From: Bacteroidota bacterium
GTDB lineage: Bacteria; Bacteroidota; Bacteroidia; NS11-12g; UBA9320
Assembly: GCA_947468275.1 (NCBI GenBank)
Contig: CANIKO010000010.1
Location: forward strand, 13,114-77,113
DNA length: 64,000 nucleotides
Direction: 5' to 3'
Under the pieces are notes generated by a model, which ran no database searches, was not told where the DNA came from, and worked only from the letters and a program-made list of their open reading frames with translations. This document shows, in pieces, positions 9,241 to 61,111 of the stretch. The position numbers were made by a program, and so were the translations under genes. Every line of letters starts with the position of its first letter. The first letter of the stretch is position 1.

Positions 9241-11058
9241 ATGAGTAAAACATCAAAAAATATTCTACCTAAGAAGGAAAAACAGACGGACTACTTTCTG
9301 TTTTTACTCTTTTTTGCCACCATTTTGGTGTTTATTAAAGGCATGTCCTCAGATATTTTAAATTTTGATGATAATGAGTATTTTGAAAATTACCCGGAGG
9401 TAATAAATCTAAGTTTTGAAAGCGTTAAAAAATACTTTTCAAGCTACTATGTTTTGATGTATCAGCCACTGCCAATATTGAGCTTTGCACTTACTTATTC
9501 CTTTTTTAAACTCGATCCAACAGCCCATCATATTATTAATTTAGGACTTCATCTTTTCAATATTTATTTGGTTTATATTTTTATTGGGAAACTTACCAAT
9601 AAGTCGATTATTAAAAAAATTGTTGCTTTTTTGTTTGCACTTCACCCTTTGGCTGTTGAGGCCGTTATGTGGTTTTCGTGTCGAAGCAGCGGTATGTATG
9701 TTTGCTTTTATTTGCTGGGGTTACTTGCTTATTTAAACTATCAACAGGAGAGTAAATTGAAATATTTGATATTTTGCGGTATTTGGTTCGTGTTTTCTCT
9801 TTTGTCAAAAGCGCATGCGGTTACTTTTCCTTTGGCCTTGATGGTTATTGATATTTTTATTTATAAAATTTCTATTGGAAAAAAACTAATTTTAAGTAAA
9901 ATTCCTTTTTTAATGCTCTCGCTTTTCTTTGGTATAATAACATTGCTCAACAAAGACACTGCCAACAATATCACTTACAGTGTAGCCAATTATTCTATAT
10001 TTGATTATTTCTTCTTACTAAACTATGAAATTTTATGGTATTTTTTAAAAGTTGTTTTGCCTACTAGTTTGGCTCCTATTTATGTTTATCCTCCTAAAAT
10101 GGAGGGTTTATTGCCAACCATATACTATTTGGCACCAATAATTATAGGGGCATTGGTTTATTTAGTTTATAAAAATTTTAAATCCCGTTCTTATGTTGCA
10201 TTCGGCATCTTATTGTTTTTTGCAATATTATCTGTAAGCCTTCAAATTTTGCCGTCACGCCAAGTGATTGTGGCCGACCGATATAGTTATTTACCCAATA
10301 TTGGTCTGTTTTTTATTATAGCAAATCTTTATGCCGAATGGGCGGAAGGAAAAATAAATTCCTTAAAAAAAATAAAAGGAAAACAGTATTTGCTGTATTT
10401 TTTAGCTTTTGTTTTAATGATTTTGTCATTTAAACAGGTAGGAATTTGGAAAAGTAATATGACTCTGGCCGACAGAATCATAGAATCTAATCCTGAAACA
10501 GATTACATAGGACGAGCATATGGAATACGAGCTAATTATAAAAAGGATGTTATAAAAGATGTAAATGCTGCACTTGTTGATTATCAAAAAGCATTGGATT
10601 TGGATTCAACCGACTGGATTGCTAGCTATCAGGCCGGGTTGATTTACAAATCGCTTGGTGATAACTCAAAAGCTATTGATTATTTTAACAAAGCCCACAA
10701 GAGCGATATGGAAAACCCTATGCCTTTGTGCGATATCGGGGTGATTCAACTAGAAATTAAAAATTACGATTTAGCTTTAAAATTTGCTGATTCAGCAATT
10801 AAGGTTTATCCCAATTCAGCAAAAGGTTTAAATTTAAAGGCGGTATGTTTGTTAAATTTAGGAAACGCTATGGATGCAGAAAGGTTTTTTACAAAAGCAA
10901 TTTTAGCCAACCCAAATTATACCGAAGCTATTAAAAACAGAGGTATTGTGCGGTTAAAAAATCTTAATAATAATGACGGTGCTTGTGCTGATTTTAGAAA
11001 AGCCGCTGAATTAGGGGAGCCCGGAATGGACTTAATATTGAAAGATTACTGTAATTAA
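9241..11058 (+). CDS. Polytopic membrane protein with C-terminal TPR repeats (PMT/TMTC-like architecture)
   Basis: ~400 aa with multiple hydrophobic helices followed by TPR-like repeats (KALDLDSTDWIASYQAGLIYKSLGDNSKAIDYFNKA...). Confidence 0.6.
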   Translation: MSKTSKNILPKKEKQTDYFLFLLFFATILVFIKGMSSDILNFDDNEYFENYPEVINLSFESVKKYFSSYYVLMYQPLPILSFALTYSFFKLDPTAHHIINLGLHLFNIYLVYIFIGKLTNKSIIKKIVAFLFALHPLAVEAVMWFSCRSSGMYVCFYLLGLLAYLNYQQESKLKYLIFCGIWFVFSLLSKAHAVTFPLALMVIDIFIYKISIGKKLILSKIPFLMLSLFFGIITLLNKDTANNITYSVANYSIFDYFFLLNYEILWYFLKVVLPTSLAPIYVYPPKMEGLLPTIYYLAPIIIGALVYLVYKNFKSRSYVAFGILLFFAILSVSLQILPSRQVIVADRYSYLPNIGLFFIIANLYAEWAEGKINSLKKIKGKQYLLYFLAFVLMILSFKQVGIWKSNMTLADRIIESNPETDYIGRAYGIRANYKKDVIKDVNAALVDYQKALDLDSTDWIASYQAGLIYKSLGDNSKAIDYFNKAHKSDMENPMPLCDIGVIQLEIKNYDLALKFADSAIKVYPNSAKGLNLKAVCLLNLGNAMDAERFFTKAILANPNYTEAIKNRGIVRLKNLNNNDGACADFRKAAELGEPGMDLILKDYCN

Positions 11059-47287: not shown

Positions 47288-49246
47288 TTACCGAATCAAA
47301 TGAACAATTCCTCTTTGGAAATTCATATTCCCTTTGGAGCAATTTGATTTTACATTAAGACTCCAAATATACACTCCGTTTTCACACAGTTTATTTTCAA
47401 AATAGCCGTTCCAGGCCGCATTTGGGTCGGTGGTGTCAAATAATTTTTGCCCCCATCGGTCAAATACCAAAAACCGGTAATAATTATAGCTTTGGATATC
47501 TGAAACGGGTTTGAAGCTTACATTTATATTATCATTTTCGCCTGGAGTAAATGCATTAGGAATCCAAACATTGCCGGCACCTTCATATACTTTAACCACT
47601 GCACTGTCGGAAGCTTTAAAATTACACAACTTATCGCGAACGGTTACCTTATATGTGCCGGAGGTAGATATATAAATGGTAGAACTTGTTTCACCTGTAC
47701 TCCACTTTGTGGCATAATTAACTGTATCGCGTATTCCGGTTCTCAAACTCACAGTATCATTTTCGCAAATTTCAAGTAAGGGGTTTCCAATATTTACGGT
47801 AAGTAGTTTTCGTTGTGCAATAGTAATAGTATCGCGGTTGGAACAATTTTTATTAATTGACAAAACACTGTATGGCCCAGGTTTTACAACATGAATCCGA
47901 ATGGTAGTATCGCCCGTGTTCCAAATATATTTTGAAGCAATTTCTTTGGCACTAAGTATTAAATCTACCTGCCCACAAACGGTAGTGTCTTTTCCGAGAT
48001 TAATTTTGGGCAATGGTTCAAGGGTCAGGATAATGCTATCTCTTTTTTTACACCCTCCTTTATCTATTTCAAGCCAATAGATTCCTGGTTTTTTAGCCAT
48101 AATCGTATCACCGGTAGAACCATCCGACCATAAATAACTATCAAAGATTCTATTTTTAACTTCTAATTTCTTAATTAGTGAATCGCCACAAAAAGCAGTG
48201 TCTTGGCCTAAAGAAATTTCCTTTACCCCTGGTAATATTTTTTTCTTAGCTATAAAACTTCCGCAATCGGTAAATATTTCAACTTCGTAGGTTCCGAATG
48301 CGGTAACTTTTATTTTTTGAGCGGTATCGTTTTTTATAACAATGTTTCCTCCTTTGATATCGGTTCCCTTCCATTTTACTTTTCGGGTGGGGTTGCCGGC
48401 ATCCAGTTCTAAATCAAAATTTTCTGCACAAATAAAGGTGTCTCGGCCAAGGCGGGTTTTGTGCTGAAAACTTCCGGCTTCAATAAAGACATAGGAATCC
48501 AATAATGGGTCGCCAACATCTGCAATGGCTAATTTTATTGTATATGTTTTACAGGGTTCTAATTTTAAATTAGCTTTTAAAATAGTGGTGTATCCATCGG
48601 CTTGCAAAGTCTTTTCTCCTAAATAATTATATCGGAAATATTGTGTATTTCGCTTTTGATTTATATTGTCAATACTTACCGGAAGGGTTTTTCCTGGAAC
48701 CAATGCAACATTTTGTTCTCCAGTAATTCCTGGCCCACTAATAAAAAATCCGAAAATATCGCTCACTCCTTTGTCTACATATTCGATATATTCTTCCGAA
48801 GCAAAAATGTAGTTAAATTCAATATCTTCTGTCTGTGGAATAAAGTCAAACTGAAGTGTTGCCGCATCATAGGTAGGTTGGGATGCATATAAATCTAGCA
48901 AAGCGCTGCCGGATGATTTGACTTCAGAGGTAGAGGAACTTCCTGAATTATTTGGCCCCTTAGCTCCCACAGCGATGCCGCTGGAAAGTATAATTCCAGC
49001 TTCCATTTGTAATTTGGACTCCATTCCGTTTTCAAAAAAACCGCAGGAACGTTTGTATCCAGTAAAAACAATATTATTCGTGGTAATGCCTTTTCCTACT
49101 AACACATTAGTTACTAAAATATAAGGAGCAGCTTCGCCAATTATTATTTGCGAATGGACAAAAAAAGACACCAACAGTAAAACTATTGTGACACTAAATT
49201 TGCGCAGCCATATAAACAGATTATTCACAGTGATTTGAATATACAA
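47288..49246 (-). CDS. Secreted protein (choice-of-anchor-like N-domain) with T9SS type B (CHU_C) C-terminal domain
   Basis: CTD NVWIPNAFTPGENDNINVSF...VFDRWGQKLF...WNGYF...GVYIWSL...RGIVHLIR. Confidence 0.7.
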   Translation of the reverse strand: MYIQITVNNLFIWLRKFSVTIVLLLVSFFVHSQIIIGEAAPYILVTNVLVGKGITTNNIVFTGYKRSCGFFENGMESKLQMEAGIILSSGIAVGAKGPNNSGSSSTSEVKSSGSALLDLYASQPTYDAATLQFDFIPQTEDIEFNYIFASEEYIEYVDKGVSDIFGFFISGPGITGEQNVALVPGKTLPVSIDNINQKRNTQYFRYNYLGEKTLQADGYTTILKANLKLEPCKTYTIKLAIADVGDPLLDSYVFIEAGSFQHKTRLGRDTFICAENFDLELDAGNPTRKVKWKGTDIKGGNIVIKNDTAQKIKVTAFGTYEVEIFTDCGSFIAKKKILPGVKEISLGQDTAFCGDSLIKKLEVKNRIFDSYLWSDGSTGDTIMAKKPGIYWLEIDKGGCKKRDSIILTLEPLPKINLGKDTTVCGQVDLILSAKEIASKYIWNTGDTTIRIHVVKPGPYSVLSINKNCSNRDTITIAQRKLLTVNIGNPLLEICENDTVSLRTGIRDTVNYATKWSTGETSSTIYISTSGTYKVTVRDKLCNFKASDSAVVKVYEGAGNVWIPNAFTPGENDNINVSFKPVSDIQSYNYYRFLVFDRWGQKLFDTTDPNAAWNGYFENKLCENGVYIWSLNVKSNCSKGNMNFQRGIVHLIR

Positions 49247-49379: not shown

Positions 49380-50039
49380 ATGAAAAAAATATTTACTCTT
49401 ATTGGACTGTTAATTTGTTTGAATAGTTACTCGCAATCTGTATTTGTGCCGGCATCGGCCTACAATTCTCATTTTTGTTCTGAATTTGATATTACTGTTC
49501 ACAGTAAATTTACCAATAAGTTTGTTACTAATAAACTTGAATTTATAAGAATTCAAAAAACGGTAACCTCTAATTGGACCACTGCCTATTGTGATTGTGA
49601 ATTGTGTCACGATATAAATACAGATACTGGAAAATTTTCTGTTGCCATTGGCCAAACCTGTGAAACTTCAGCGCATTTTTATCCTGATGGAGCCAAAGGT
49701 ATAGGGTATATAAAAATTAAAGTTTTTCCTGAAGGCGACCCTGCTAATTTTGTAATAGGTGAATACAGTGCTAGCTGCTGGGGTGTTTCGGCCACGTTTA
49801 TCGAAAACCAAAAATTAGCAGTTTCCCCAAATCCTGCCAATACAGTTTTAAACATTGGTTTTGGTGCGGGAGGTGAGTATACCATCAGTATTATAAACAC
49901 CGAAGGAAAAGTAATTGTAAATGAAAAAGTAGAAAATTTAGTAAACACTTTAGATATTTCTAACTTTAACTCAGGCTTATATTCCGTAAAAATAGAAAGT
50001 GCCGGAAAGGTATTTTATTCTAAATTTATAAAGCTTTAA
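49380..50039 (+). CDS. Small secreted protein with T9SS type A C-terminal sorting domain
   Basis: Signal peptide; CTD VSPNPANTVLNIGF...GLYSVKIESAGKVFYSKFIKL. Confidence 0.65.
   Translation: MKKIFTLIGLLICLNSYSQSVFVPASAYNSHFCSEFDITVHSKFTNKFVTNKLEFIRIQKTVTSNWTTAYCDCELCHDINTDTGKFSVAIGQTCETSAHFYPDGAKGIGYIKIKVFPEGDPANFVIGEYSASCWGVSATFIENQKLAVSPNPANTVLNIGFGAGGEYTISIINTEGKVIVNEKVENLVNTLDISNFNSGLYSVKIESAGKVFYSKFIKL
49965..50039 (+). repeat. 75-bp near-identical repeat (CTD 3' end), partner at 54570-54644
   Basis: 1 mismatch over 75 bp while upstream CTD sequence is divergent. Confidence 0.85.
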
Positions 50040-50057
50040 AAAAATAAAATAAGTTAT

Positions 50058-50096
50058 AAAAAAAGAGGTCGGTAGTTTTTACTGACCTCTTTTTTG
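50058..50096 (+). terminator. Rho-independent terminator
   Basis: Hairpin agaggtcggtag-ttttt-actgacctct then T6. Confidence 0.6.
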
Positions 50097-50221
50097 TGAT
50101 TTTTTTTTCTAACTTATTGTTTTAGGAAGAGAAAAAACAGAAACTATAAAATAGTAATCCTTGCAATACCAAAAAAAATAATGTAATCTTTGATAAAAAA
50201 TTAAACTCTAATTAAAAAATT

Positions 50222-50668
50222 ATGAAAAAATTTATCTTACTCCTTACTTTAATCGGCTTTGGTTTTAGTAATAGAATAGAGGCACAGTGTATTAATTATA
50301 ATTGGACAAATAATTCTGGTTGCGATTGGAATATTAAGTTCTACGATAATGCAGGTAATAATATTGCAATATCAAATGCTACTGCTACCGCCAGTAGTGG
50401 AACTCCTACCGTACCTTCTGGAGGAGGATGTTTTGGGTGCAATTCTCTGATGGCTGGAGGGAGGATTGATTTCACAAATAGTTGTGGGTGTACCATTTCT
50501 ATTCCTTTGTTAGCTGGCACTACTGTTACAACCGTGATTGCAGATTGTGCCTTGCAAGGATGCAGTACTATAAGTTGCAGTGGAACTCCAGTTACTTCAA
50601 GCATTGCCGCAATTAGGTCTACTCCGGGATTTCCTTGTGCTAATTTTTATACTATAACCCTTAATTAG
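50222..50668 (+). CDS. Small secreted Cys/Gly/Thr-rich hypothetical protein
   Basis: Signal peptide MKKFILLLTLIGFGFSNRIEAQ; 14 Cys in 126 mature residues. Confidence 0.5.
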   Translation: MKKFILLLTLIGFGFSNRIEAQCINYNWTNNSGCDWNIKFYDNAGNNIAISNATATASSGTPTVPSGGGCFGCNSLMAGGRIDFTNSCGCTISIPLLAGTTVTTVIADCALQGCSTISCSGTPVTSSIAAIRSTPGFPCANFYTITLN

Positions 50669-50729
50669 CGTTTAATAGAAAATCTTGGTTTGTCATTTGA
50701 CAATTACTCTGAATAAATTTATTCAATCT

Positions 50730-53700
50730 ATGCTTCGTTTTATCTGGGCGTTTTTATTAATATTTTTGATACAATTATGCCCTTTCAAATCAACAGCAGA
50801 AATAAATAAAATTTATGGAGATGCATCTTTAACCTATTTTAAATCTAATGCTGGACAGTGGGATAAAGATGTTCATTACAGGCTTATCAGTAATGGATAT
50901 GCAATTAGTTTTTTTAACAATAAAGTATCTTTTGCTATAAGCCGACAATCTGATGATAAGATACAAAATACTTTTAAAGAAAAATTAAAACTACCAGAAC
51001 TAGATTATTTAGTTTGGGAAATTGTCTTTGAAGGTTCTGAACACTGCATTCCAATTGGAGAAGGAAATATCCCTTCTATTTATCGTTTTTTTGGTAACGG
51101 TTCCTGTAATGGTAAAACTATAGATTTATTTAAAAAAATAGTTTACAAAAATATTTATCCTCAAACCGACCTCGTATTTTATGTTGATTCCAAAAAGCAA
51201 ATTAAATATGATTTTATTCTTCATCCTGGAGGCGATATTTCTAAAATTAAAATGAAATATAATGGAATTGAGGGCTTGAAATTAAATGAACACAACGATT
51301 TGAATATTAAAACGGTATGGGGTGATTTTAAAGAAAACACGCCTTTTTCTTTTCAACAAATTAATGGGCAAGAAATGATTGTAGATGTTAAATATTTTTT
51401 GGCCAATAATAATACATTAACTTTTGAATCTATTAAGGATTTGGATAGAACAAAAACTTTAATTATTGACCCTGTTCTATTAGACTGGAGTACCTATTTT
51501 TATGGAAATTCACGATTTAATATAGATAATTCAAATCAAATTGTACAATATGTTGGTGGGGTAGATATTGACTCTAAAGGGTACACGTATGTTGCAGGAA
51601 CAACCAATCAAGATTTTCCAAAAATACCAGGGTTACACAACTCAAAACCAGGTAATTTTCCTTCAAGTAAGACGGATGCTTATTATTGTAAAATATCTCC
51701 AAAAGGCGATTCGTTTTTGTTTTTTAATTATTTGGGAGGAGCTAATAATGATATGGTTAATACGCTTCATATTAATTCAAAAGAAGAAGCTGTAATAACA
51801 GGTTATGGAGGACCTGGATTCCCATTCACTAAAGGAGCTTTGGATACTAATTACGGAGGTTTTGTAACAACATTTAATAGCACAGGCGATTCCATAAGAT
51901 TTTCAACATTCTTTCATCCATTTTCGGGAAATAATGCAATTATTACAGAATCGGGCGAAGTAATTATTGCAGGGGCGTGTTCAGGAGGAATGTTAGTTAC
52001 TTCGGGTGCTTATCAAAATAAATATCAAGGAGGATCAGTTGATGGTTTTGTTGCAAAAATAAAGTCAGATGGTAAAAGTCTATCTTTTTCAACCTATATC
52101 GGTGGAGATGATATGGAAGAAATTTATGGTATTAGTATTAATTCAAAAGAAGATATTTATTTAGTAGGTTACACACGCTCAAACAATTTCCCAATAAATA
52201 CATCTAATAATTCTTTTAAATACTTAAAAGGTGGTGCAGATGGATTTTTACTAAAATTGGATAATAGCGGCTCAAAAGTTCTTTTTAGCGATGTTATTGG
52301 GGGTAGCTATGATGATTTTTTGCAAAGTATTTTTATAAATCCCAAAGAAGAAATATTTGTTTCAGGTTTTACCAATTCTAATAATTTTCCAGTAAGTGTT
52401 TATCCTATTGCACATCAAGCTTCAAACGCAGGTAAATATGATCTTGTTGCAATGAAGTTTTTACCCAATGGTTCTAACTACAAGTATTCAACCTACATTG
52501 GAGGAAGTGATAATGAATATTGTAATAATTGGATTAATGGCATGATTACCCAAATAGCAGTAAATGCAAAGGATGAAGCGATAATTATGGGGGTTAGCCA
52601 ATCTAACGATTTTCCGGTGACAAGTGATGCGCTTCAAAAAACGAATAAGGCAAAAGCGAAAATACAAGAACCGCTTAATTTAACATTAACAAAGTTATCC
52701 TTTGGAGGTGATAAATTGATTTATAGTACTTATTTTGGAGGAGGTTATTCCGATAATTTATTATCTGGACGAATTAAACGATTTAATTGTGTCACAAATA
52801 TTGTAATCGCAGGAGCCACAATGTCACGCGATTTCCCTACAACTACTGGAAGTATATACCCAAATGCACCAAAGGATACTTTATTTGGCAATGGAAAACA
52901 TTTCACATACGCTTATGTGAGTTTCATTTCCAAATTTTCAGATACACTAAAAGTTGAGAAACCAAGTTTTGGCAATAGAACTAAAACTCGGTGCAATGAT
53001 TTTTTAGAGATATTGGACGGATTAAATCAGGGAAGTTATAGGCGGTGGAGCACGGGTGACAGCAGCCAGTTTCTTTTGGTAAATAAAGCGGGCACCTACT
53101 GGGTAGCAACCACCTATGGCTGCGATACAATTCGCGACAGCATTACCATTATTAACCCAATTAATAAAGCTAATTTTACGATTTTGGATACGGCCCAATG
53201 CCTAGCCGGAAATAGTTTTACATTTAAAGAAACTACACAATTTAAAAATACAAAGCATAAAGAAAGTAGTTGGTATTTTGATGATAGCACCAGTATAATG
53301 GATACTATTGCCAAAAAATCATTTACCACACCCGGCATTCATTTTATAAAACTAGTATCTCAAAGTACCGCTGATTGCATGGATTCCATCACCACAACAG
53401 TTCATGTGTACCCCAATACACAACCCAATTTTGTTATTAACGATACATCTCAATGTTTAAAAAATCAAAACTTTAATTACACGAACACCTCTACCGACAC
53501 CGGCAAAATAAGCTACCAATGGGATTTGGGCGACCAAACCTTTAGCAACCAAAAAAATATTTCAGCTAAAACCTATCTAAAAGACAGCAGCTATGTTATT
53601 AAACTTATAAGCACCACCGACAAAAATTGTGAGGATACAGCTACCAAAATAATCTCGATAAAACCAAGCCCCGTGGCTGATTTTAAATGGGATATAGCCT

Positions 53701-54644
53701 GTAGCCGAACCGTCACAAATTTTAAATACACCGGTTCAAAACCTATTCAATCATTTCACTGGAATTTTAACAACGAAGCCACTTCCACCCTCGAAAATCC
53801 CTCCCATAAATTTGCCGCCGCAGGAACCTCAATCTCAACCTTAACCTTAACCTCAAGCAACGGATGCTCTGATACGCTTAAAAAATCCATTGACATAAAA
53901 CCCCAATCGCAAGCCGATTTTACGACCCAAGATGTGTGTGAAAACACCACCACAGATTTTGTAAATACATCCAAAGATGCCACAAGCTATAATTGGAAAT
54001 TTGGAGATGGAAATACCTCCAATCTTCAATCCCCCAAACACCAATATCAAATCAGCGGAAAATCTACTACCTTTAATGTTACCTTGGTAGCCATAGTAGC
54101 CAATGGTTGTTCCGATTCCATAAGCAAAGCCACCACAGTAAATGCCAATCCAAGCGCAGATTTTAGCTATACCACCGGCGGCAAGCAAGTAAATTTTACA
54201 GCTACCGAAACCGCAGCTACCCTATACCAATGGACTTTTGGCGATGGAGGAACCGTCAATACCGCAACCCCAAAAACCACTTACAACTACACCAAATTTC
54301 CTTCAGGCAAATACACCGCTTGCCTCAAAGTTATCAATGCCGCCAACTGTTTTTCAGAATCGTGCAAGGAAATTGTTATTACAGGTGGCATTGCAAACCT
54401 CTCAGAAAAAAGCTTTAAAATTTACCCCAATCCCAACAATGGAAGTTTTACCATTGAAATTGAAAATCCTGAAAACGATGGAATAATTAGTATTTACAAT
54501 ACGATAGGGATGCAAATTAAAACTATAGAAACCAATTCATCCCAAAGCCAATATTTAATAAAATTAGATTTTAACTCAGGATTATATTCCGTAAAAATAG
54601 AAAGTGCCGGAAAGGTATTTTATTCTAAATTTATAAAGCTTTAG
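50730..54644 (+). CDS. Large secreted protein with SBBP-like beta-propeller repeats, multiple PKD-like domains and T9SS type A C-terminal sorting domain
   Basis: Likely start MLRFIWAFLL at 50730; repeated ...FTxxxxCxxxxFxFxNTS...WxFGDG... PKD signatures; CTD KIYPNPNNGSFTIEI...GLYSVKIESAGKVFYSKFIKL. Confidence 0.75.
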   Translation: MLRFIWAFLLIFLIQLCPFKSTAEINKIYGDASLTYFKSNAGQWDKDVHYRLISNGYAISFFNNKVSFAISRQSDDKIQNTFKEKLKLPELDYLVWEIVFEGSEHCIPIGEGNIPSIYRFFGNGSCNGKTIDLFKKIVYKNIYPQTDLVFYVDSKKQIKYDFILHPGGDISKIKMKYNGIEGLKLNEHNDLNIKTVWGDFKENTPFSFQQINGQEMIVDVKYFLANNNTLTFESIKDLDRTKTLIIDPVLLDWSTYFYGNSRFNIDNSNQIVQYVGGVDIDSKGYTYVAGTTNQDFPKIPGLHNSKPGNFPSSKTDAYYCKISPKGDSFLFFNYLGGANNDMVNTLHINSKEEAVITGYGGPGFPFTKGALDTNYGGFVTTFNSTGDSIRFSTFFHPFSGNNAIITESGEVIIAGACSGGMLVTSGAYQNKYQGGSVDGFVAKIKSDGKSLSFSTYIGGDDMEEIYGISINSKEDIYLVGYTRSNNFPINTSNNSFKYLKGGADGFLLKLDNSGSKVLFSDVIGGSYDDFLQSIFINPKEEIFVSGFTNSNNFPVSVYPIAHQASNAGKYDLVAMKFLPNGSNYKYSTYIGGSDNEYCNNWINGMITQIAVNAKDEAIIMGVSQSNDFPVTSDALQKTNKAKAKIQEPLNLTLTKLSFGGDKLIYSTYFGGGYSDNLLSGRIKRFNCVTNIVIAGATMSRDFPTTTGSIYPNAPKDTLFGNGKHFTYAYVSFISKFSDTLKVEKPSFGNRTKTRCNDFLEILDGLNQGSYRRWSTGDSSQFLLVNKAGTYWVATTYGCDTIRDSITIINPINKANFTILDTAQCLAGNSFTFKETTQFKNTKHKESSWYFDDSTSIMDTIAKKSFTTPGIHFIKLVSQSTADCMDSITTTVHVYPNTQPNFVINDTSQCLKNQNFNYTNTSTDTGKISYQWDLGDQTFSNQKNISAKTYLKDSSYVIKLISTTDKNCEDTATKIISIKPSPVADFKWDIACSRTVTNFKYTGSKPIQSFHWNFNNEATSTLENPSHKFAAAGTSISTLTLTSSNGCSDTLKKSIDIKPQSQADFTTQDVCENTTTDFVNTSKDATSYNWKFGDGNTSNLQSPKHQYQISGKSTTFNVTLVAIVANGCSDSISKATTVNANPSADFSYTTGGKQVNFTATETAATLYQWTFGDGGTVNTATPKTTYNYTKFPSGKYTACLKVINAANCFSESCKEIVITGGIANLSEKSFKIYPNPNNGSFTIEIENPENDGIISIYNTIGMQIKTIETNSSQSQYLIKLDFNSGLYSVKIESAGKVFYSKFIKL

Positions 54645-54874: not shown

Positions 54875-55450
54875 ATGAAAACAACAAACAAAAGTTACGC
54901 AAAAGGATTAATTGCATGTGCCTTATTAATTTTCTCATTTCAACTTTCTTTCGCCCAATGGTCAACTTCAGGTAATTCATTGAGTACTGGAAATTTTTTG
55001 GGTTCTACAAATGCGACCGATTTAGTATTTAAAACTAACAATACAACACGGATGATCATTAAATCAGATGGAAATGTGGGGATTGGTACAACTAACACCA
55101 GCGGTTTTCTCCTTTCTGTAGATGGTAAAATCCGTGCAAGAGAGGTGAGAATAAATATGGACACATGGGCTGATTATGTATTTGCTGATACTTATAAGCC
55201 GATGAATCTTACCGAACTTGAATTATTTATTAAAAAAAATAAGCACTTGCCTGGTATTCCGTGTGAGCAAGAAGTAATTACTTCTGGAATTTCAATTAAT
55301 GAAATAACGTTATCTTTAATTCAAAAAATAGAGGAAATAACACTTTATACTATTGAAATAAATAAAAAAATGGCTGATTTACAATTGTTGGTGGCTAAAC
55401 AGCAAGCAGAGTTAGAATTATTGAAAAATCCACAACCTGTTAAACCTTAA
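54875..55450 (+). CDS. Secreted Bacteroidetes-specific small protein (N-terminal Gly/Thr/Asn-rich repeat region, conserved WADYVF...KKNKHLPGIP core, C-terminal coiled coil)
   Basis: Signal peptide; motif DTWADYVFADTYKPMNLTELELFIKKNKHLPGIPCEQEV recalled as a recurrent uncharacterised Flavobacteriia family. Confidence 0.5.
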   Translation: MKTTNKSYAKGLIACALLIFSFQLSFAQWSTSGNSLSTGNFLGSTNATDLVFKTNNTTRMIIKSDGNVGIGTTNTSGFLLSVDGKIRAREVRINMDTWADYVFADTYKPMNLTELELFIKKNKHLPGIPCEQEVITSGISINEITLSLIQKIEEITLYTIEINKKMADLQLLVAKQQAELELLKNPQPVKP

Positions 55451-55462
55451 CTCTCAATAGTT

Positions 55463-58400
55463 ATGAAAAAAAGGTGTCTTTTTTTATTTGTTTTTGGGAT
55501 AAGTATGTTAATTGCAAATTTAACGTATGCTCAACCCAGATATGTAACTCCACAAGAAGGTTTTCGAGAACTTTTTTTGCCACTTACACGAGGGATTCCT
55601 AGTGCCCCTATTCTGTATGAAATGAACTTACATGAACTGGAAGATACTTTTTATAGGGCTATATGCCATAAATCAATTGATGCTGATGGGTGGATTACCT
55701 TAATGAATACGCTTTGGTGGTGTGCTTATGATACCCTTGATGTGCCCGATATGTCAGTAATGGAAGATACAGTTGAAAAAATTATTAAGGCCGACCCTTT
55801 AATGGTACCTATTGGCATAGCGGCATACGATTATCATAGATATAATGAAAATGTTTTTAATGTAAACGGAGAGTACTTTGATTGGACGGATAGTACAATT
55901 GTAGATCATGCTGGACGCATAGAGCCATTTGATGTAAATCCATTTGACCTGTCGAGAGGTATTCTGCAAGACTTATTTAGTGCATCCCCCCTTGTTACAT
56001 CTCATCCTTATAAAAAAGTTAAATACAGGCTTGATCCTTATTTTTTTAATTTTGGATTATCTACTTTAGTAGGCTTACCTACTACTTTTACTTGGAAAAT
56101 TGACTTTGGTGATGGTAATGGATTTATAACTTTTGATCCATCATCTTTAATTATTCAAGAAGTTAATTATACTAGTGGGGGAATAAAAACATTAACGGTT
56201 CAGGTTGAAAAAGATGCTGTTCCTATAGCCATTTCAGTTTCCGAAATCTACATTGAAGGGTTTGATAAATTAGTGCCAAATGAGAATATTAAAGTAGGTA
56301 ATGTAAATGCCGACCTTTTTACAGCTTGCAATTCATCGGGGAAACTGGTAATGGTTGTTACGGGATTTGACCCTTTGGGAACAAATACAAATGAAAAGAC
56401 TGCAAATAATTTAATTATAAATTCAAAAATAAATATGCTATTAAATTATGGTTATGATATAGCTGTTGTTGAATTTACAGAACCACACACCGGGATATTA
56501 GCTTTGGCCGATGAACTAATTGAATTTATTGAACATATGAAATGCCGTTATGATAATGACCACCCATTTGTTATTTTTAGTTCAAGTTTAGGTGGCCCCG
56601 TGACACGGGTAGCCCTTACAAAAATGGAAAAAACTGATTATATGACTGCTGCATTTGCTAATGCATCCATATGCAATCCTTTACGTATGCATAATACACG
56701 TCTTTGGATAAGCCTAGATGGTGAAATGGATGGGGCAAATGTTCCTATTGGACTGCAAGAATCAATAAAAGGAAGTGTGGAGGTAGCTAATTTTATTGAA
56801 GGATTAGGGAAAATAAAAACAGGTATGGGTGTAATGCTTCGGCAGGTTAAAAGAATAAAAATGCAAGAAAAATTTGATAAGGCGATAGCAAACCAAACCG
56901 CTCGTGAATTATTTAGTGTTCATGTGGATACTAAAAACGGCATGAATGAATATACTCACGACCCTGAATTTGACACAACATGGGCAGAGATAAGAGCACT
57001 CAACCCTGCCACAAATGGGTATCCTAAGTATTGTAAAAAAGTTGCATTATCTAACGGTTTATTTGACGGAAAAAGACAGGTAGCAATTGGTGATAGAGTA
57101 GCGCAAGGTGGTGATACTATGAATTTTTTAAGCATGAATACAAAATTGCGATATCAAAGATTTAACCCGCTATACCTATCGTTTACAACCATGCATTATG
57201 CCTATTATTTGGCTCCCAATTTTGCTACAGACACTGTTTCTCGCATTCATGTATCTGTAAATAAAGTTAATTTCAAGAAACTAATGAAGGCTATCGCTGC
57301 TTCTATTGCTTTAAATTCAACTTCCCCTTTTAATGCTATTTATAATACTCATGTATTTGATAGAACCGCAATAATGAATAACGACAGCCATAAAAGTTGG
57401 GATATTGTAGGTGGAGGCCGCGAGGGGCATTGGGTTTCAGAATTAAAAAGTGTTCCACCAGGTTTTAACATTAATCCAATAACCTTAAGACCATTTAAAA
57501 AGTTTCCGGGTTTAGGCTACACCATTTTTGACATAAATACAAGTCTTGATACTGTAAATGGATTTTTTGCAGCCACAACAGGTTGGCCAATAGAGTATTT
57601 TAACTTAAACAGCCGATGTGTGGCTACCGATTGGACACTTGCTTATACCAAAAACACCTTTGATATGGTAAGAACGGGTTTTGATACCGATATGGAAAGC
57701 GAAGGAATAGACAGCAACTTAGCCCGAACCCCTTTTGATGTAATAATAGCCGGAGTTACCAATGCTAATTACCCCAAAACATGGAGCAGCACGGGTGGCC
57801 GCCCCTATTGGCACAGAAGTGTGAGAACAACAGAAGCTGATAATGGAGCAGGTGATAATCTTACAATGATTGTTAGGGAAATTGGCGATAAGTATCATTA
57901 TTTAGATAACAGAATAGTAAACCGCACGGAGATGTACAGATGCCATGATAGTATTGTTGCTGGAAGTTCTTCAAATCCAAAATATTATTATGCGCTTGGA
58001 AGTCCAGCCGGAAAATATCCTGCATTGCAATCAAAAACAAATCAATTCAATGTAGTTGATAGTGGCTTTTTACATTTAATAAGTACCCGCGAAATAATAT
58101 TACGGCCTGGTTTTAATGTACTTGATAGTGGCGAAATGATAGCCGAAATAGACTCGGTTCCGGTTTGCAATTTAACCTATGAAGAGATAACAGAAATAAT
58201 GCAAACGGAATTTGGTGCCTCCCCTTTAAAATTAGATGCCCTACCCAATGATGAACTGAAAAAAAGGGAAGGATTTAAATTATATCCCAATCCGGCAGGT
58301 AAAGTGGTGAATCTAATTGGAAGCTCAGTCAATTTTGAAGCAACGTTTATTGATTCACATGGAAAGAATATCAACAAATATCGAGGATGGAAATCAATAG

Positions 58401-58492
58401 AAATAAATCTTGAAAATTTACCACAAGGAGTTTATTATTTTAATATTACCTTTGATAATCAAGAGCAACATCTTAAATTTATTAAATTATGA
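55463..58492 (+). CDS. Secreted putative alpha/beta-hydrolase (lipase/esterase-like SxSxG) with T9SS type A C-terminal sorting domain
   Basis: Signal peptide; HPFVIFSSSLGGPVTRVAL nucleophile-elbow-like motif; CTD FKLYPNPAGKVVNLIGSSVNFEA...GVYYFNITFDNQEQHLKFIKL. Confidence 0.6.
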   Translation: MKKRCLFLFVFGISMLIANLTYAQPRYVTPQEGFRELFLPLTRGIPSAPILYEMNLHELEDTFYRAICHKSIDADGWITLMNTLWWCAYDTLDVPDMSVMEDTVEKIIKADPLMVPIGIAAYDYHRYNENVFNVNGEYFDWTDSTIVDHAGRIEPFDVNPFDLSRGILQDLFSASPLVTSHPYKKVKYRLDPYFFNFGLSTLVGLPTTFTWKIDFGDGNGFITFDPSSLIIQEVNYTSGGIKTLTVQVEKDAVPIAISVSEIYIEGFDKLVPNENIKVGNVNADLFTACNSSGKLVMVVTGFDPLGTNTNEKTANNLIINSKINMLLNYGYDIAVVEFTEPHTGILALADELIEFIEHMKCRYDNDHPFVIFSSSLGGPVTRVALTKMEKTDYMTAAFANASICNPLRMHNTRLWISLDGEMDGANVPIGLQESIKGSVEVANFIEGLGKIKTGMGVMLRQVKRIKMQEKFDKAIANQTARELFSVHVDTKNGMNEYTHDPEFDTTWAEIRALNPATNGYPKYCKKVALSNGLFDGKRQVAIGDRVAQGGDTMNFLSMNTKLRYQRFNPLYLSFTTMHYAYYLAPNFATDTVSRIHVSVNKVNFKKLMKAIAASIALNSTSPFNAIYNTHVFDRTAIMNNDSHKSWDIVGGGREGHWVSELKSVPPGFNINPITLRPFKKFPGLGYTIFDINTSLDTVNGFFAATTGWPIEYFNLNSRCVATDWTLAYTKNTFDMVRTGFDTDMESEGIDSNLARTPFDVIIAGVTNANYPKTWSSTGGRPYWHRSVRTTEADNGAGDNLTMIVREIGDKYHYLDNRIVNRTEMYRCHDSIVAGSSSNPKYYYALGSPAGKYPALQSKTNQFNVVDSGFLHLISTREIILRPGFNVLDSGEMIAEIDSVPVCNLTYEEITEIMQTEFGASPLKLDALPNDELKKREGFKLYPNPAGKVVNLIGSSVNFEATFIDSHGKNINKYRGWKSIEINLENLPQGVYYFNITFDNQEQHLKFIKL

Positions 58493-59148
58493 GACCACTA
58501 CTTTATGGTTTAACACTATCATTAGTTGTATTAACAAATTGCAAGCCTCAAGAGGATAGCACCCCGCAATTTACTTTTAAAGGCCAAATACTTAATGCTA
58601 CAACCAACGAAGTTCCTGTAGGACTTTCGGTTACTCTTCAAGCCACATCATCTCCTGATTTGTTCACAAAATTTAAAAAAGAAATACTGGGAACCGCCAT
58701 TACTGATAGTATGGGGAGGTTTTCTATTACTTATAAGAAAACTAGTTTACCCATTTTAACACTATTATCTCAATTTCTTACTTATAATGATCTTCCAATA
58801 AATAAAAATGTGGATACTATTTTCTATAGAAGTACAAAAGGTACAATTTCTTTTATTTTAACAGCAATTAACCCATTAAAAATTGAAGACACTTTATATT
58901 TAGCTATTCCAGCATTAGATATTGGAAAAGATGTAACCTTAGAAAAAATTTCAGGGCCATTTCCTCAAAAAAAGATTATTCAATATCGAACTCTCACGGA
59001 TAGGGGTAGTTTACAATATTTCTGGGCAATAGGATATACTCAATGGGATAGTGTAATGAGGTTTTCACATCTTTATTCCAAGAATAAATTAATTTACAAT
59101 ATGCGCGGAGACCCATATATAGATACAATAAAGATAAAATATAGGTAG
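58489..59148 (+). CDS. Lipoprotein, copy 1 (candidate cognate immunity/partner protein of upstream T9SS cargo)
   Basis: ATGA overlap with upstream stop; lipobox LVVLTNC; 219 aa; paralog at 59339-59998. Confidence 0.55.
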   Translation: MRPLLYGLTLSLVVLTNCKPQEDSTPQFTFKGQILNATTNEVPVGLSVTLQATSSPDLFTKFKKEILGTAITDSMGRFSITYKKTSLPILTLLSQFLTYNDLPINKNVDTIFYRSTKGTISFILTAINPLKIEDTLYLAIPALDIGKDVTLEKISGPFPQKKIIQYRTLTDRGSLQYFWAIGYTQWDSVMRFSHLYSKNKLIYNMRGDPYIDTIKIKYR

Positions 59149-59153
59149 CCAAG

Positions 59154-59342
59154 ATGGTCAATATTACTGGAAGCTCAGTCAATTTTGAAGCAACGCTTAT
59201 TGATTCACGTGGAAAGTATATTAACAAATATCGAGGATGGAAATCGATAGAAATAAATTTAGACTGCTTACCTCAGGGTATTTATTATTTTTCCATTACC
59301 TTTGATAATCAAGAGCAACATCTTAAATTTATTAAATTATGA
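59154..59342 (+). pseudogene. Orphan duplicated fragment of T9SS CTD 3' end (last 62 codons of 55463-58492 gene)
   Basis: MVNITGSSVNFEATLIDSRGKYINKYRGWKSIEINLDCLPQGIYYFSITFDNQEQHLKFIKL vs upstream ...VNLIGSSVNFEATFIDSHGKNINKYRGWKSIEINLENLPQGVYYFNITFDNQEQHLKFIKL. Confidence 0.7.
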
Positions 59343-59998
59343 GACTACTAATTTATTGCCTTGTTTTTTCGGTTTTATTTATCTGTAATTGCAAGTCAGA
59401 TGACGAGAGTGTTCCTGAATTTACTTTTAAAGGTCAGTACATTGATGTAATAAATAATAAAGTTCCTGTGGGGCTTGCAGTTACTCTGCAAGCCACCTCA
59501 TCTCCTGATTTGTTCACAAAATTCAAAAAGGAAATACTAGGAACTGCCATTACTGATAGCATGGGTAGATTCTCAATAACTTATAAAAAGACTAATTTGC
59601 CAATTTTGACATTAATGTCACAGTATTTTACGCACGAAAATTTACCTATTAATAAGAATATTGATACAGTTTTTTACATTAGTAATTATGGTACTTTAAT
59701 TTTTGTTTTAACAGCAGATATCCCATTAAAAAATCAAGACACTTTATATTTAGGAATTCCACCTTTTAAATTAAATCAAACTGAAAATATAGTTAAGCTT
59801 TCAGGGCCTTTTTCTCCTCAAGAAGTCATTAAATTTCGTCTAATAGTGGAAAATGGGGGTATACAACATTTTTGGGCAATTGGTCGTTCACAATGGGATA
59901 GTGTAACTTATTTTCCACATAAATATCTGGGAAATAAGTTGCAAATAAGTATGAGAGGAGACCCATATGTAGATACGATAAAAATAAAGTATAGATAA
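59339..59998 (+). CDS. Lipoprotein, copy 2 (paralog of 58489-59148)
   Basis: 219 aa; shared core VPVGLAVTLQATSSPDLFTKFKKEILGTAITDSMGRFSITYKKT; ATGA-type overlap with the fragment ORF. Confidence 0.55.
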   Translation: MRLLIYCLVFSVLFICNCKSDDESVPEFTFKGQYIDVINNKVPVGLAVTLQATSSPDLFTKFKKEILGTAITDSMGRFSITYKKTNLPILTLMSQYFTHENLPINKNIDTVFYISNYGTLIFVLTADIPLKNQDTLYLGIPPFKLNQTENIVKLSGPFSPQEVIKFRLIVENGGIQHFWAIGRSQWDSVTYFPHKYLGNKLQISMRGDPYVDTIKIKYR

Positions 59999-60052
59999 TA
60001 TGAGACTACTACTTTATGGTTTAATACTATCATTACAATGTATATAAATAAA

Positions 60053-60084
60053 GGCTGGTAATCAATTGCCAGCCTTTATTTTTT
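60053..60084 (+). terminator. Rho-independent terminator ending the + strand cargo/lipoprotein array
   Basis: ggctggtaat-caat-tgccagcc then T-rich run. Confidence 0.65.
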
Positions 60085-60107: not shown

Positions 60108-60131
60108 CTCCCCTCTCATAGAGGAGAGGGG
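60108..60131 (-). terminator. Hairpin terminator downstream of moxR
   Basis: ctcccctctc-atag-aggagagggg; T-rich on minus strand transcript. Confidence 0.5.
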
Positions 60132-60145
60132 CCGGGGGTGAGGTC

Positions 60146-61111
60146 TTAATACAACTTCTTAATAATATCATTGATGCTGATTCCTTCAGCTTCAGCTTTG
60201 TAGTTTTTTAATACCCTGTGACGCAATACCGATTCGGCTACTGCCTGCACGTTTTCAATGTCCGGTGAATATTTTCCTTGAATAAGGGCATTACATTTTG
60301 CGCCCATTATAAGGTATTGGCTGGCACGAGGCCCTGCGCCATAGCTCACGTATTTATTTACTTCGGCAGTTGCCATGGGGTAACCCGGGCGGGTTTTGCT
60401 CACCAGTTTCACAGCATATTCATACACATTATCAGCCACCGGCACTTTACGTATCAAATCCTGAAAGTATAAAATTTCGGCAGCACCAAATACTTTTGTA
60501 GGGGTGGTGGTGACATTGGTTGTTGTATTTTTTACCACCTTTATTTCCTCTTCAAAACTTGGATAGTCTAAAAAAAGATTGAACATAAAACGGTCTAATT
60601 GAGCCTCCGGCAAAGGATAGGTTCCTTCCTGCTCAATAGGATTTTGAGTAGCCAATACAAAAAATGGATTGGGCAATATATGATTGGTTCCTCCCACGGT
60701 TACGGTTTTTTCTTGCATGGCTTCTAACAAAGCTGCTTGAGTTTTGGGAGGGGTACGGTTTATTTCATCGGCCAAAATTATATTGGCAAACAATGGCCCT
60801 TTTGAAAAACGGAAATTCTTTTGGTCGTCTAAAATTTCGGAGCCTGTAATATCACCGGGCATAAGGTCGGGAGTGAATTGTATTCGGTTAAAACTTAAAT
60901 CCAGAGATTCGGAAATGGTTTTTACCAATAAGGTTTTTGCCAATCCGGGCACTCCTACTAATAAACTATGACCTTTGCAAAAAATAGAAGTTAGCACCCC
61001 ATCCACCACTTCATCCTGCCCCACAATTACTCGTGCTATTTCTTTTTTTAAGTTTTTAACTTGTTCTTTAAAAGCTTCGGCAGCTTCTACTTCATTTTTA
61101 TATTCTTGCAT
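60146..61111 (-). CDS. MoxR-family AAA+ ATPase
   Basis: 321 aa; Walker A GVPGLAKT, typical MoxR length and VIVGQDEVV motif. Confidence 0.85.
   Translation of the reverse strand: MQEYKNEVEAAEAFKEQVKNLKKEIARVIVGQDEVVDGVLTSIFCKGHSLLVGVPGLAKTLLVKTISESLDLSFNRIQFTPDLMPGDITGSEILDDQKNFRFSKGPLFANIILADEINRTPPKTQAALLEAMQEKTVTVGGTNHILPNPFFVLATQNPIEQEGTYPLPEAQLDRFMFNLFLDYPSFEEEIKVVKNTTTNVTTTPTKVFGAAEILYFQDLIRKVPVADNVYEYAVKLVSKTRPGYPMATAEVNKYVSYGAGPRASQYLIMGAKCNALIQGKYSPDIENVQAVAESVLRHRVLKNYKAEAEGISINDIIKKLY

Follow-up and report, generated by a model that had tools for sequence, protein, structure and literature searches.

A type IX-secreted, lipase-like hydrolase and its tandem lipoprotein genes: a candidate effector/immunity-like module of Bacteroidota

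Type IX secretion systems (T9SS) are known for the secretion of digestive enzymes, adhesins, gliding-motility proteins and virulence proteases. For type VI secretion systems (T6SS), lipase effectors (Tle) with their immunity proteins (Tli) were reportedly described in 2013, the immunity lipoproteins being said to form tandem arrays of variable copy number, and clusters of orphan immunity genes were reportedly characterized in Bacteroidales in 2019. Polymorphic toxin loci, such as those of contact-dependent inhibition (CDI) and Rhs, harbor orphan C-terminal and immunity cassettes. [quoted passage not shown] Searches of the open-access full-text literature turned up no T9SS effector-immunity pair, and a review of T9SS effectors from 2023 (PMC10202324) is without the terms “antibacterial”, “lipase”, “competition” and “bacteriocin” and has “immunity” once, in the title of a reference on host immunity. 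Here we describe a locus in a 64,000-nucleotide (nt) stretch of a Bacteroidota genome (assembly GCA_947468275.1, contig CANIKO010000010.1, positions 13,114 to 77,113; hereafter, the window), in which the gene of a T9SS-secreted, putatively lipase-like hydrolase, the cargo, is followed by tandem lipoprotein genes. The conflict-module pattern of this locus would, by analogy, match TslA/TilA most closely, with effector/immunity-like logic apparently joined to a new secretion route and two uncharacterized protein families.

The cargo is encoded by an open reading frame (ORF) of 1009 amino acids (aa) at positions 55463-58492 of the window, on the plus strand like all parts of this operon. The TGA stop of the cargo and the ATG of a gene for a 219-aa lipoprotein (lipoprotein 1, 58489-59148, lipobox ...LTN-C18) overlap as ATGA. 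Lipoprotein 1 is followed by a relic of the last ~195 nt of the cargo gene, that is, of the 3' end of its T9SS C-terminal sorting domain (CTD; 59144-59338, by repeat comparison), and by the gene for lipoprotein 2, also of 219 aa (59339-59998; 62% aa identity to lipoprotein 1). The relic copy is still open as a 62-codon ORF (59154-59342), the stop of which overlaps the start of lipoprotein 2, again as ATGA. Next comes a scar (59999-60047) that keeps, of a lipoprotein-1-type gene, the first 12 codons (MRLLLYGLILSL...) and is truncated to a 15-codon ORF (60000-60047); the 37-nt copy of the lipoprotein gene start that it contains (59999-60035) matches lipoprotein 1 at its start with 95% identity. 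The scar sits immediately 5' of an intrinsic terminator hairpin with a U-run (60046-60081; dG -21.2 kcal/mol, z = -5.8) that closes the operon.

An earlier note on the window, made from the sequence by a model, had described the secreted 1009-aa protein with its ATGA overlap, the orphan CTD fragment and a third, truncated lipoprotein start before the terminator; all of these are present in the ORF map and sequence, with the coordinates of the truncated start corrected to those given above. The diverged tandem duplication that it had placed at ~830 bp is borne out as to both duplication and divergence, but the period is 850 nt, with units at 58294-59147 and 59144-59997 (repeat finder, BLAST). 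The units are in register and, by the repeat finder, 86% identical where they derive from the CTD and 73-75% identical where they encode the lipoprotein; BLAST gives E = 7.5e-156, so that the repeat is far beyond chance. The note had also raised the possibility of an assembly artefact in the form of a collapsed repeat. Two independent public assemblies, referred to here as loci L002 (GCA_947446425.1) and L003, show the layout of the window at 99.94% identity, so that the array is real, and with copies that differ by ~25% a collapsed repeat is not a concern.

Export of the cargo through the T9SS is indicated by both of its ends. A Sec signal peptide was read by eye from the sequence (MKKRCLFLFVFGISMLIANLTYAQ), and the C-terminus (aa 940-1009, 58280-58489) is a type A T9SS sorting domain that, as the note had proposed, exceeds the curated cutoffs of both PF18962 (35.8 bits, cutoff 27, aa 940-1007) and TIGR04183 (34.3 bits, cutoff 23); by these sequence criteria, the cargo is a bona fide T9SS type A substrate. 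The CTD is its sole match in searches against Pfam, NCBIfam and PDB sequences, and a profile of the hydrolase core yields nothing significant among PDB sequences. In the structure model, the signal peptide is followed by a conserved N-terminal alpha+beta domain, a PKD-like sandwich (FGDGxG, aa 215-220), a hydrolase core that carries a helical lid and an inserted beta domain of ~170 aa, a small beta domain (aa ~800-900), a disordered linker and the CTD.

The family to which the cargo belongs is large and widely conserved in its predicted catalytic residues. A word-indexed protein search gave only 4 relatives; the family emerged from an exhaustive HMMER search of 1.84 billion representative proteins, with 496 representative clusters at E <= 1e-3 and 96 at E <= 1e-30. 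Most of these relatives are ~1000 aa long, and the match spans either the first ~540 residues or the full length. Family alignment and the structure model place the alpha/beta-hydrolase region at aa ~291-795 (56333-57847), with the nucleophile Ser375 (codon 56585-56587), His784 (57812-57814) and three candidate acids, Asp419 (56717-56719), Asp734 (57662-57664) and Asp759 (57737-57739), all on the plus strand. Among 118 full-length members, conservation reaches 99% for Ser375, 100% for His784, 97% for Asp419, 83% for Asp759 and 77% for Asp734, and His410, Glu389 and Gln432 are likewise invariant in all 118 aligned proteins. The window cargo retains the serine, the histidine and all three aspartates; in L001, position 419 is Glu. 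The SxSxG motif pointed out by the note is the nucleophile elbow SSSLGG at aa 373-378; the family consensus here is GESMGG, and SSSLGG is found in the window protein and its two closest relatives.

At the nucleophile elbow, relatives of the cargo match DUF676, PGAP1, LCAT and Abhydrolase_1. In the eight family members that were scanned, DUF676 is above its cutoff of 20.3 in four (20.5-30.8 bits) and PGAP1 only in P0181 (37.1 bits against a cutoff of 24.3); the window cargo has no Pfam match to DUF676 or PGAP1. It is thus only a distant relative of the DUF676, PGAP1-like and LCAT hydrolases (PF05057, PF07819, PF02450), without a match to any of these models, and differs from them in that its core is split by the ~170-aa beta domain and flanked by N-terminal, PKD-like and C-terminal beta domains and the CTD. 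The model has an alpha/beta-hydrolase fold in which the nucleophile, the histidine and the acid candidates are all retained, a point on which the reading of the note depended, and its structure matches are generic esterases and lipases. As far as this evidence reaches, the cargo is a putative serine hydrolase of the lipase/esterase type.

That the downstream genes encode lipoproteins, as had been supposed, is well supported: the lipobox Cys, preceded by a hydrophobic h-region, is invariant across 38 aligned homologs, and of the ORFs that jackhmmer retrieved, all but 2 have a lipobox context (55 distinct contexts). Apart from this Cys, the invariant positions in the 38 homologs all lie in two motifs, T-D-x-x-G-x-F and D-T-L. 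The structure model is all-beta with two domains (predicted local distance difference test score 64.9, from a 10-sequence alignment, so that fold matches are indicative only), and Foldseek matches it to transthyretin-like and pilin-type sandwiches. Together with weak Pfam matches in the family (TTR-52 in 11 of the 38 homologs, CarboxypepD_reg in 5), this points to an N-terminal transthyretin/CarboxypepD_reg-like sandwich followed by a variable C-terminal beta domain. Nothing was found for the lipoprotein in PHROGs. A Lif-type foldase identity was considered and rejected, there being no Lif-type Pfam match and the model being all-beta; the fold of Lif is helical. Both window copies are intact and under purifying selection (ratio of non-synonymous to synonymous divergence, omega, 0.26), with omega between lipoproteins 1 and 2 of 0.085 in the N-domain and 0.26-0.55 in the C-domain.

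The surface lipoprotein export signal of Bacteroidota consists of C-X-K-(D/E)2 or an S-D-D-type acidic stretch just past Cys+1 (PMC5080379). The lipidated Cys begins CKPQED in lipoprotein 1 and CKSDDE in lipoprotein 2, with K at position +2 in both and acidic residues among positions +4 to +6; in the family, 67% have K at +3 and 49% have D/E at +4, and 20 of the 55 contexts contain two or more acidic residues. The residues after the Cys thus resemble the surface-export signal, and the description of the lipoproteins as periplasm-facing, given in the note, is for this reason only an assumption.

The association of the two families was surveyed in one genome per GTDB species with a 6-sequence core alignment of the cargo. 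The survey returned 44 loci, from Saprospiraceae, Chitinophagaceae, Flavobacteriales, Crocinitomicaceae, Vicingaceae, Cytophagales and others; its patterns were of the GESMGG type, which biases the loci away from the SSSLGG subclade of the window itself. Of these, 39 extend for 800 nt or more past the cargo, and in 32 of the 39, lipoprotein homologs, collected by jackhmmer seeded with lipoprotein 1, directly follow the cargo gene and start -4 to +82 nt from its stop. The linked loci carry one (14 loci), two (13), three (4) or four (1) copies; a survey of homologs for conserved downstream arrays of variable copy number is what the earlier note had called for. Since the genes upstream and further downstream of the pair vary between loci, the pair behaves as an autonomous module. 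In three loci, the ~220-aa gene after the cargo is replaced by a pair of half-size lipoproteins (120-132 aa), each with its own lipobox and both matching the family profile (L025 10272-11068; L041 10221-10975; L045 10288-11034). Another locus, L011 (11698-14017), has two lipoprotein genes and a truncated third one (75 aa), then a 5'-truncated subtilase (Peptidase_S8) with a T9SS CTD. The subtilase stop and the start of a gene for a different lipoprotein, of 320 aa, overlap, and the two may form another type of pairing between a T9SS cargo and a lipoprotein.

Turnover of the array at the level of strains is seen in L005, L006 and L007, which belong to the same species as L002 and have flanks that are 97.6-98.6% identical, with different arrays in between. 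The window and L002 have the order cargo, lipoprotein 1, relic, lipoprotein 2, scar. In L006 and L007, the cargo is followed by the lipoprotein P0007 (73% aa identity to lipoprotein 1) and, directly abutting it with no CTD relic in between, by a second lipoprotein gene with 99% identity to lipoprotein 1; L005 has the cargo, P0007, the scar and the terminator. L002 and L005 thus bear the scar as well, and its 37 nt are the start of a gene like the second one of L006, which implies the past loss of a distal copy.

The cargo gene takes part in this exchange. Between the window/L002 and L006 alleles, there are no aa differences over aa 1-760 (synonymous divergence, dS, 0.014; non-synonymous divergence, dN, 0) and the sequences diverge beyond, indicating a recombination breakpoint inside the cargo gene. 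The divergence includes a hypervariable patch of the C-terminal beta domain of the cargo (aa 831-870, 57953-58072, plus strand; dN = 0.44 between alleles) and the C-domain of the lipoprotein (aa 101-219; dN 0.41), and the CTD and the lipoprotein N-domain, which lie between these two hot patches, are conserved (dN 0.01-0.05). In this single pair of alleles, the co-variation of the C-terminal beta domain of the cargo and the lipoprotein C-domain suggests a specific contact between them. The swapped part of the cargo (aa ~761-1009) excludes Ser375 and the Asp candidates, and His784, which it includes, is unchanged; the catalytic residues are thus located within the constant part or at its edge.

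Intact lipoprotein genes are also found without a cargo gene, as two copies in a different genomic context in L004, one of which is 94% nucleotide-identical to lipoprotein 2, and as one copy in L008. Both the L004 and L008 orphans keep the last codons of the cargo upstream, and so descend from linked modules. In L004, the stop of the second orphan is followed, after 9 nt, by the start of an alpha/beta hydrolase (GVSLGG; 10150-10863) of 237 aa that apparently has a signal peptide; it is unrelated in size to the cargo family, and could be a coincidence or a different partner enzyme. In L008 (2306-3180), the orphan lies beside genes for a Cys-rich 213-aa protein and a DUF2158 protein, on a short contig with no cargo gene and in a context unlike the others.

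Beyond strains of one species, there appears to have been a recent transfer of the module between two species. From 54570 to ~60100, the window is 99.7-100% identical to L002 (7654-13190), whereas identity drops to 82-93% in the right flank and 85.5% in the left one; the housekeeping genes that flank the block, encoding MoxR, SurA-like PPIases and a UvrD-like helicase, are 82-93% identical. A near-100% module of ~5.6 kb between such flanks argues for a recent transfer between species, even though a doubly chimeric assembly could possibly produce the same picture. The orphan arrays, the allele turnover and the transfer all fit the effector/immunity-like character that the note had ascribed to the locus.

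The note had taken the retained CTD fragments as a sign of the swapping of effector C-termini by recombination. A joint swap of the cargo 3' end and the lipoprotein is indeed seen between the window/L002 and L006 alleles, but the fragment itself is better explained as a by-product of duplication. As the lipoprotein start overlaps or abuts the cargo stop, tandem duplication of an intact lipoprotein gene with its initiation region must carry some of the cargo 3' end along, and the 3' end of the own cargo precedes extra lipoprotein copies in five other lineages (93 nt in L011, at least 398 nt in L037, 51 nt in L050, 45 nt in L039 and 17 nt in L043). In the orphan array of L004, the equivalent CTD piece is broken by stop codons with only the last ~18 codons conserved, and in L008 only “YHKFIKL*” is left of the cargo end, for which reason we take the window's 62-codon ORF to be, most probably, a young relic. 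That it is a functional mini-gene was considered and rejected, given the stops in the L004 homolog and relic lengths that range from 17 to at least 398 nt elsewhere; it may help the translational coupling of lipoprotein 2. The relic and the cargo CTD differ by a dS of 0.34 and lipoproteins 1 and 2 by a dS of 1.07, about three times higher, which points to gene conversion or a mosaic origin, not to one old duplication.

The coupling of the genes, the phylum-wide linkage, the one to four diverged copies, the replacement of alleles together with a patch of the enzyme that co-varies, the orphans and the exchange of whole modules form the pattern of a conflict module, and for this reason we favor the reading in which a secreted hydrolase is paired with cognate neutralizing, immunity-like lipoproteins, to which we give an even chance of being correct. 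The substrate of the enzyme, its binding and inhibition by the lipoproteins and any antibacterial role are what we infer. The proposed unit would be a self-contained, mobile Bacteroidota operon, with translational coupling between a hydrolase gene and the genes of one or more lipoproteins cognate to it. The cargo would be exported by Sec, fold in the periplasm and be routed by its CTD through the T9SS, to act extracellularly on a substrate with an ester linkage, probably a lipid. The lipoproteins, lipid-anchored in the envelope and facing either the periplasm or the cell surface, would bind the hydrolase in an allele-specific manner and neutralize it, thereby protecting the producer, and extra or orphan copies would protect against the hydrolase variants of neighbors. 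The array would grow by tandem duplications, each dragging along a piece of the cargo 3' end because of the overlap of start and stop, and would shrink or be reshuffled by recombination between the conserved 5' ends of lipoprotein genes and between CTD 3' ends. The wider proposal, that this T9SS-secreted lipase-type family of ~500 clusters comprises interbacterial or envelope-damaging effectors that act from outside and are paired with allele-specific, possibly surface-exposed immunity lipoproteins, remains tentative, in our judgment leaning towards doubtful.

Several observations weigh against neutralization. In the cargo, the patch that co-varies is not part of the catalytic domain, and its position fits docking as well as inhibition. 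Positive selection (omega > 1) was sought between paralogs and between alleles and none was found, with dN/dS of 0.02-0.55 and dS saturated in the variable parts. Because the structure matches of the cargo are generic, “lipase” is a guess at class level, and the elbow of the window protein is SxSxG in place of the GESMGG of the family. The lipoprotein fold, from a model of moderate quality, is a generic two-sandwich type common among the surface binding proteins of Bacteroidota. To our knowledge, the T9SS has no means of delivering a protein into another cell. Finally, in seven of the 39 loci the cargo ORF is not followed by a chain of lipoprotein genes. In L012, which is among the seven, the cargo is frameshifted and lipoprotein genes do occur farther downstream; the six others, four of which group together in the family dendrogram, keep the catalytic residues, and so an adjacent lipoprotein is not universally required. 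The lipoprotein-less cargo genes show no difference in catalytic residues and no loss of the C-terminal beta domain.

In the main rival reading, the lipoprotein is a docking or accessory partner, that is, a surface-exposed anchor or substrate-binding subunit that holds the hydrolase on the producer or presents the substrate without inhibiting it, in the manner of the SusE/F-type lipoproteins that occur beside enzymes or of cohesin and dockerin. Such a role is suggested by the resemblance of the post-Cys residues to the surface-export signal (67% of members with K at +3, 49% with an acidic +4 residue, and the CKSDDE of lipoprotein 2; PMC5080379), the generic binding-type, transthyretin/CarboxypepD_reg-like two-sandwich fold, the position of the co-varying patch (aa 831-870) in a small beta domain beside the CTD and away from the active site, and the cargo genes without a nearby lipoprotein gene. 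It poorly explains two to four diverged paralogs, strain-level allele replacement, intact orphans and the recent transfer of the module between species, and we regard it as possible, if rather unlikely.

If the lipoprotein were instead a safeguard or secretion helper acting only in cis, such as a periplasmic chaperone, foldase or transit inhibitor of its own cargo comparable to Lif of Pseudomonas lipase or PhlB of Serratia phospholipase, the tight ATGA coupling and the ~1:1 linkage in 14 loci would follow naturally, and T9SS cargo does pass the periplasm as folded protein (PMC10202324). A helper of this kind would not need diverged multi-copy or orphan arrays, six cargo loci with intact catalytic residues lack a nearby lipoprotein gene, and the all-beta lipoprotein model has no Lif-type Pfam match; the arrays and orphans in particular make this explanation less likely, and we consider it improbable. 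Chance adjacency, with unrelated paralogs merely lying downstream as a decaying duplicate array, has in its favor only that neither the hydrolase domain nor the lipoproteins of the window reach any curated Pfam or NCBIfam cutoff. The linkage in 32 of 39 loci across several Bacteroidota families with otherwise unrelated neighborhoods, and the intactness and purifying selection of both window lipoproteins, leave this explanation strongly disfavored and effectively excluded on the sequence evidence.

Returning to the neutralizing reading and the systems with which this text began, the T6SS lipases share with the cargo a GxSxG-type serine hydrolase encoded beside small envelope partners, often lipoproteins, with tandem diverging copies and orphans elsewhere. 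The note had regarded such arrays as the hallmark of T6SS Tle/Tli loci. Membership in that group is contradicted by the lack of homology of either the cargo or the lipoproteins to the Tle1-5 or Tli families and by the absence of annotated T6SS components (VgrG, Hcp, PAAR) in the 21-kb context of L002, which shares the layout of the window; the resemblance is an analogy, in that the module may work like a Tle/Tli pair without being one. With TslA/TilA, the locus shares an extracytoplasmic, here putative, lipase with its known or, here, proposed neutralization by an extracellular lipoprotein, as well as lipoprotein partner genes in variable tandem arrays and recombination across conserved stretches. 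The two differ in phylum, envelope and secretion system, and the protein families are unrelated, with no DUF576 match; in the present locus, the ~1000-aa enzyme has several additional domains, and the lipoprotein gene is placed downstream, its start overlapping the cargo stop.

As in polymorphic toxins of the CDI and Rhs types, the 3' end of a large gene is exchanged jointly with a small downstream gene, and displaced copies bearing relics accumulate. In contrast to these, the catalytic domain is located in the constant part of the gene, so that the cargo is not a classical polymorphic toxin, and the relic is a piece of a secretion signal, not of a toxin domain, and decays. The acquired interbacterial defense clusters of Bacteroidales resemble L004 and L008 in that intact immunity-like genes are kept without an adjacent effector; those clusters consist of T6SS immunity genes with a recombinase, unlike the one or two genes found here with no recombinase seen nearby.

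The upstream neighborhood contains at least three other CTD-bearing genes within 12 kb (a CHU_C gene at 47288-49246, and genes at 49380-50039 and 50685-54644), which is indirect evidence of a working T9SS in the host. The block nearly identical to L002 has its left edge at a 74-nt copy of a CTD 3' end, the end of a 1319-aa cargo gene (54570-54643, plus strand). It forms a 98.6% identical direct repeat with 49965-50038, both repeats being 3' ends of T9SS CTDs, and bounds a 4.5-kb indel, the insertion at 50039-54569 being found in neither L002 nor L006. The insertion holds a 148-aa gene and the 1319-aa gene (DUF7948, PKD, T9SS CTD), and the 1319-aa protein and the upstream CTD-bearing protein of 219 aa share their final 23 residues. 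CTD 3' ends seem to be substrates of recombination in this genome.

Between this repeat and the cargo, a 191-aa secreted protein is encoded (54875-55450, plus strand, by the ORF map), ending 12 nt 5' of the cargo start. Its features are a tail-fibre-like N-terminal motif (phrog_9942, E = 1.9e-5; PDB 8ojn, “cell wall surface anchor family protein”, E = 0.004) and a C-terminal coiled coil, and its linkage to the cargo is confined to the nearest subclade (L001, L009-L012, L023). A sigma-70 promoter scan, which does not cover Bacteroidota promoters, was uninformative (32 sites against 27.8 expected). On the other side of the operon, the terminators stand back to back, a second G+C-rich hairpin with a T-run (60108-60131, minus strand) serving the convergent MoxR-like gene (60146-61111, minus strand).

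Even if the lipoproteins turn out to be docking partners, two large uncharacterized protein families with a conserved partnership are defined. If the effector-immunity reading is true, this would be the first effector-immunity system tied to type IX secretion, and its immunity arrays, orphans and inter-species module exchange would evolve much like those of T6SS and T7SS systems. A toxin and antidote of this kind would mean an undescribed contact-independent or surface-based competition among Bacteroidota of soil, water and sludge, in which a diffusible or surface-bound enzyme, not an injected one, drives the same arms-race genetics.

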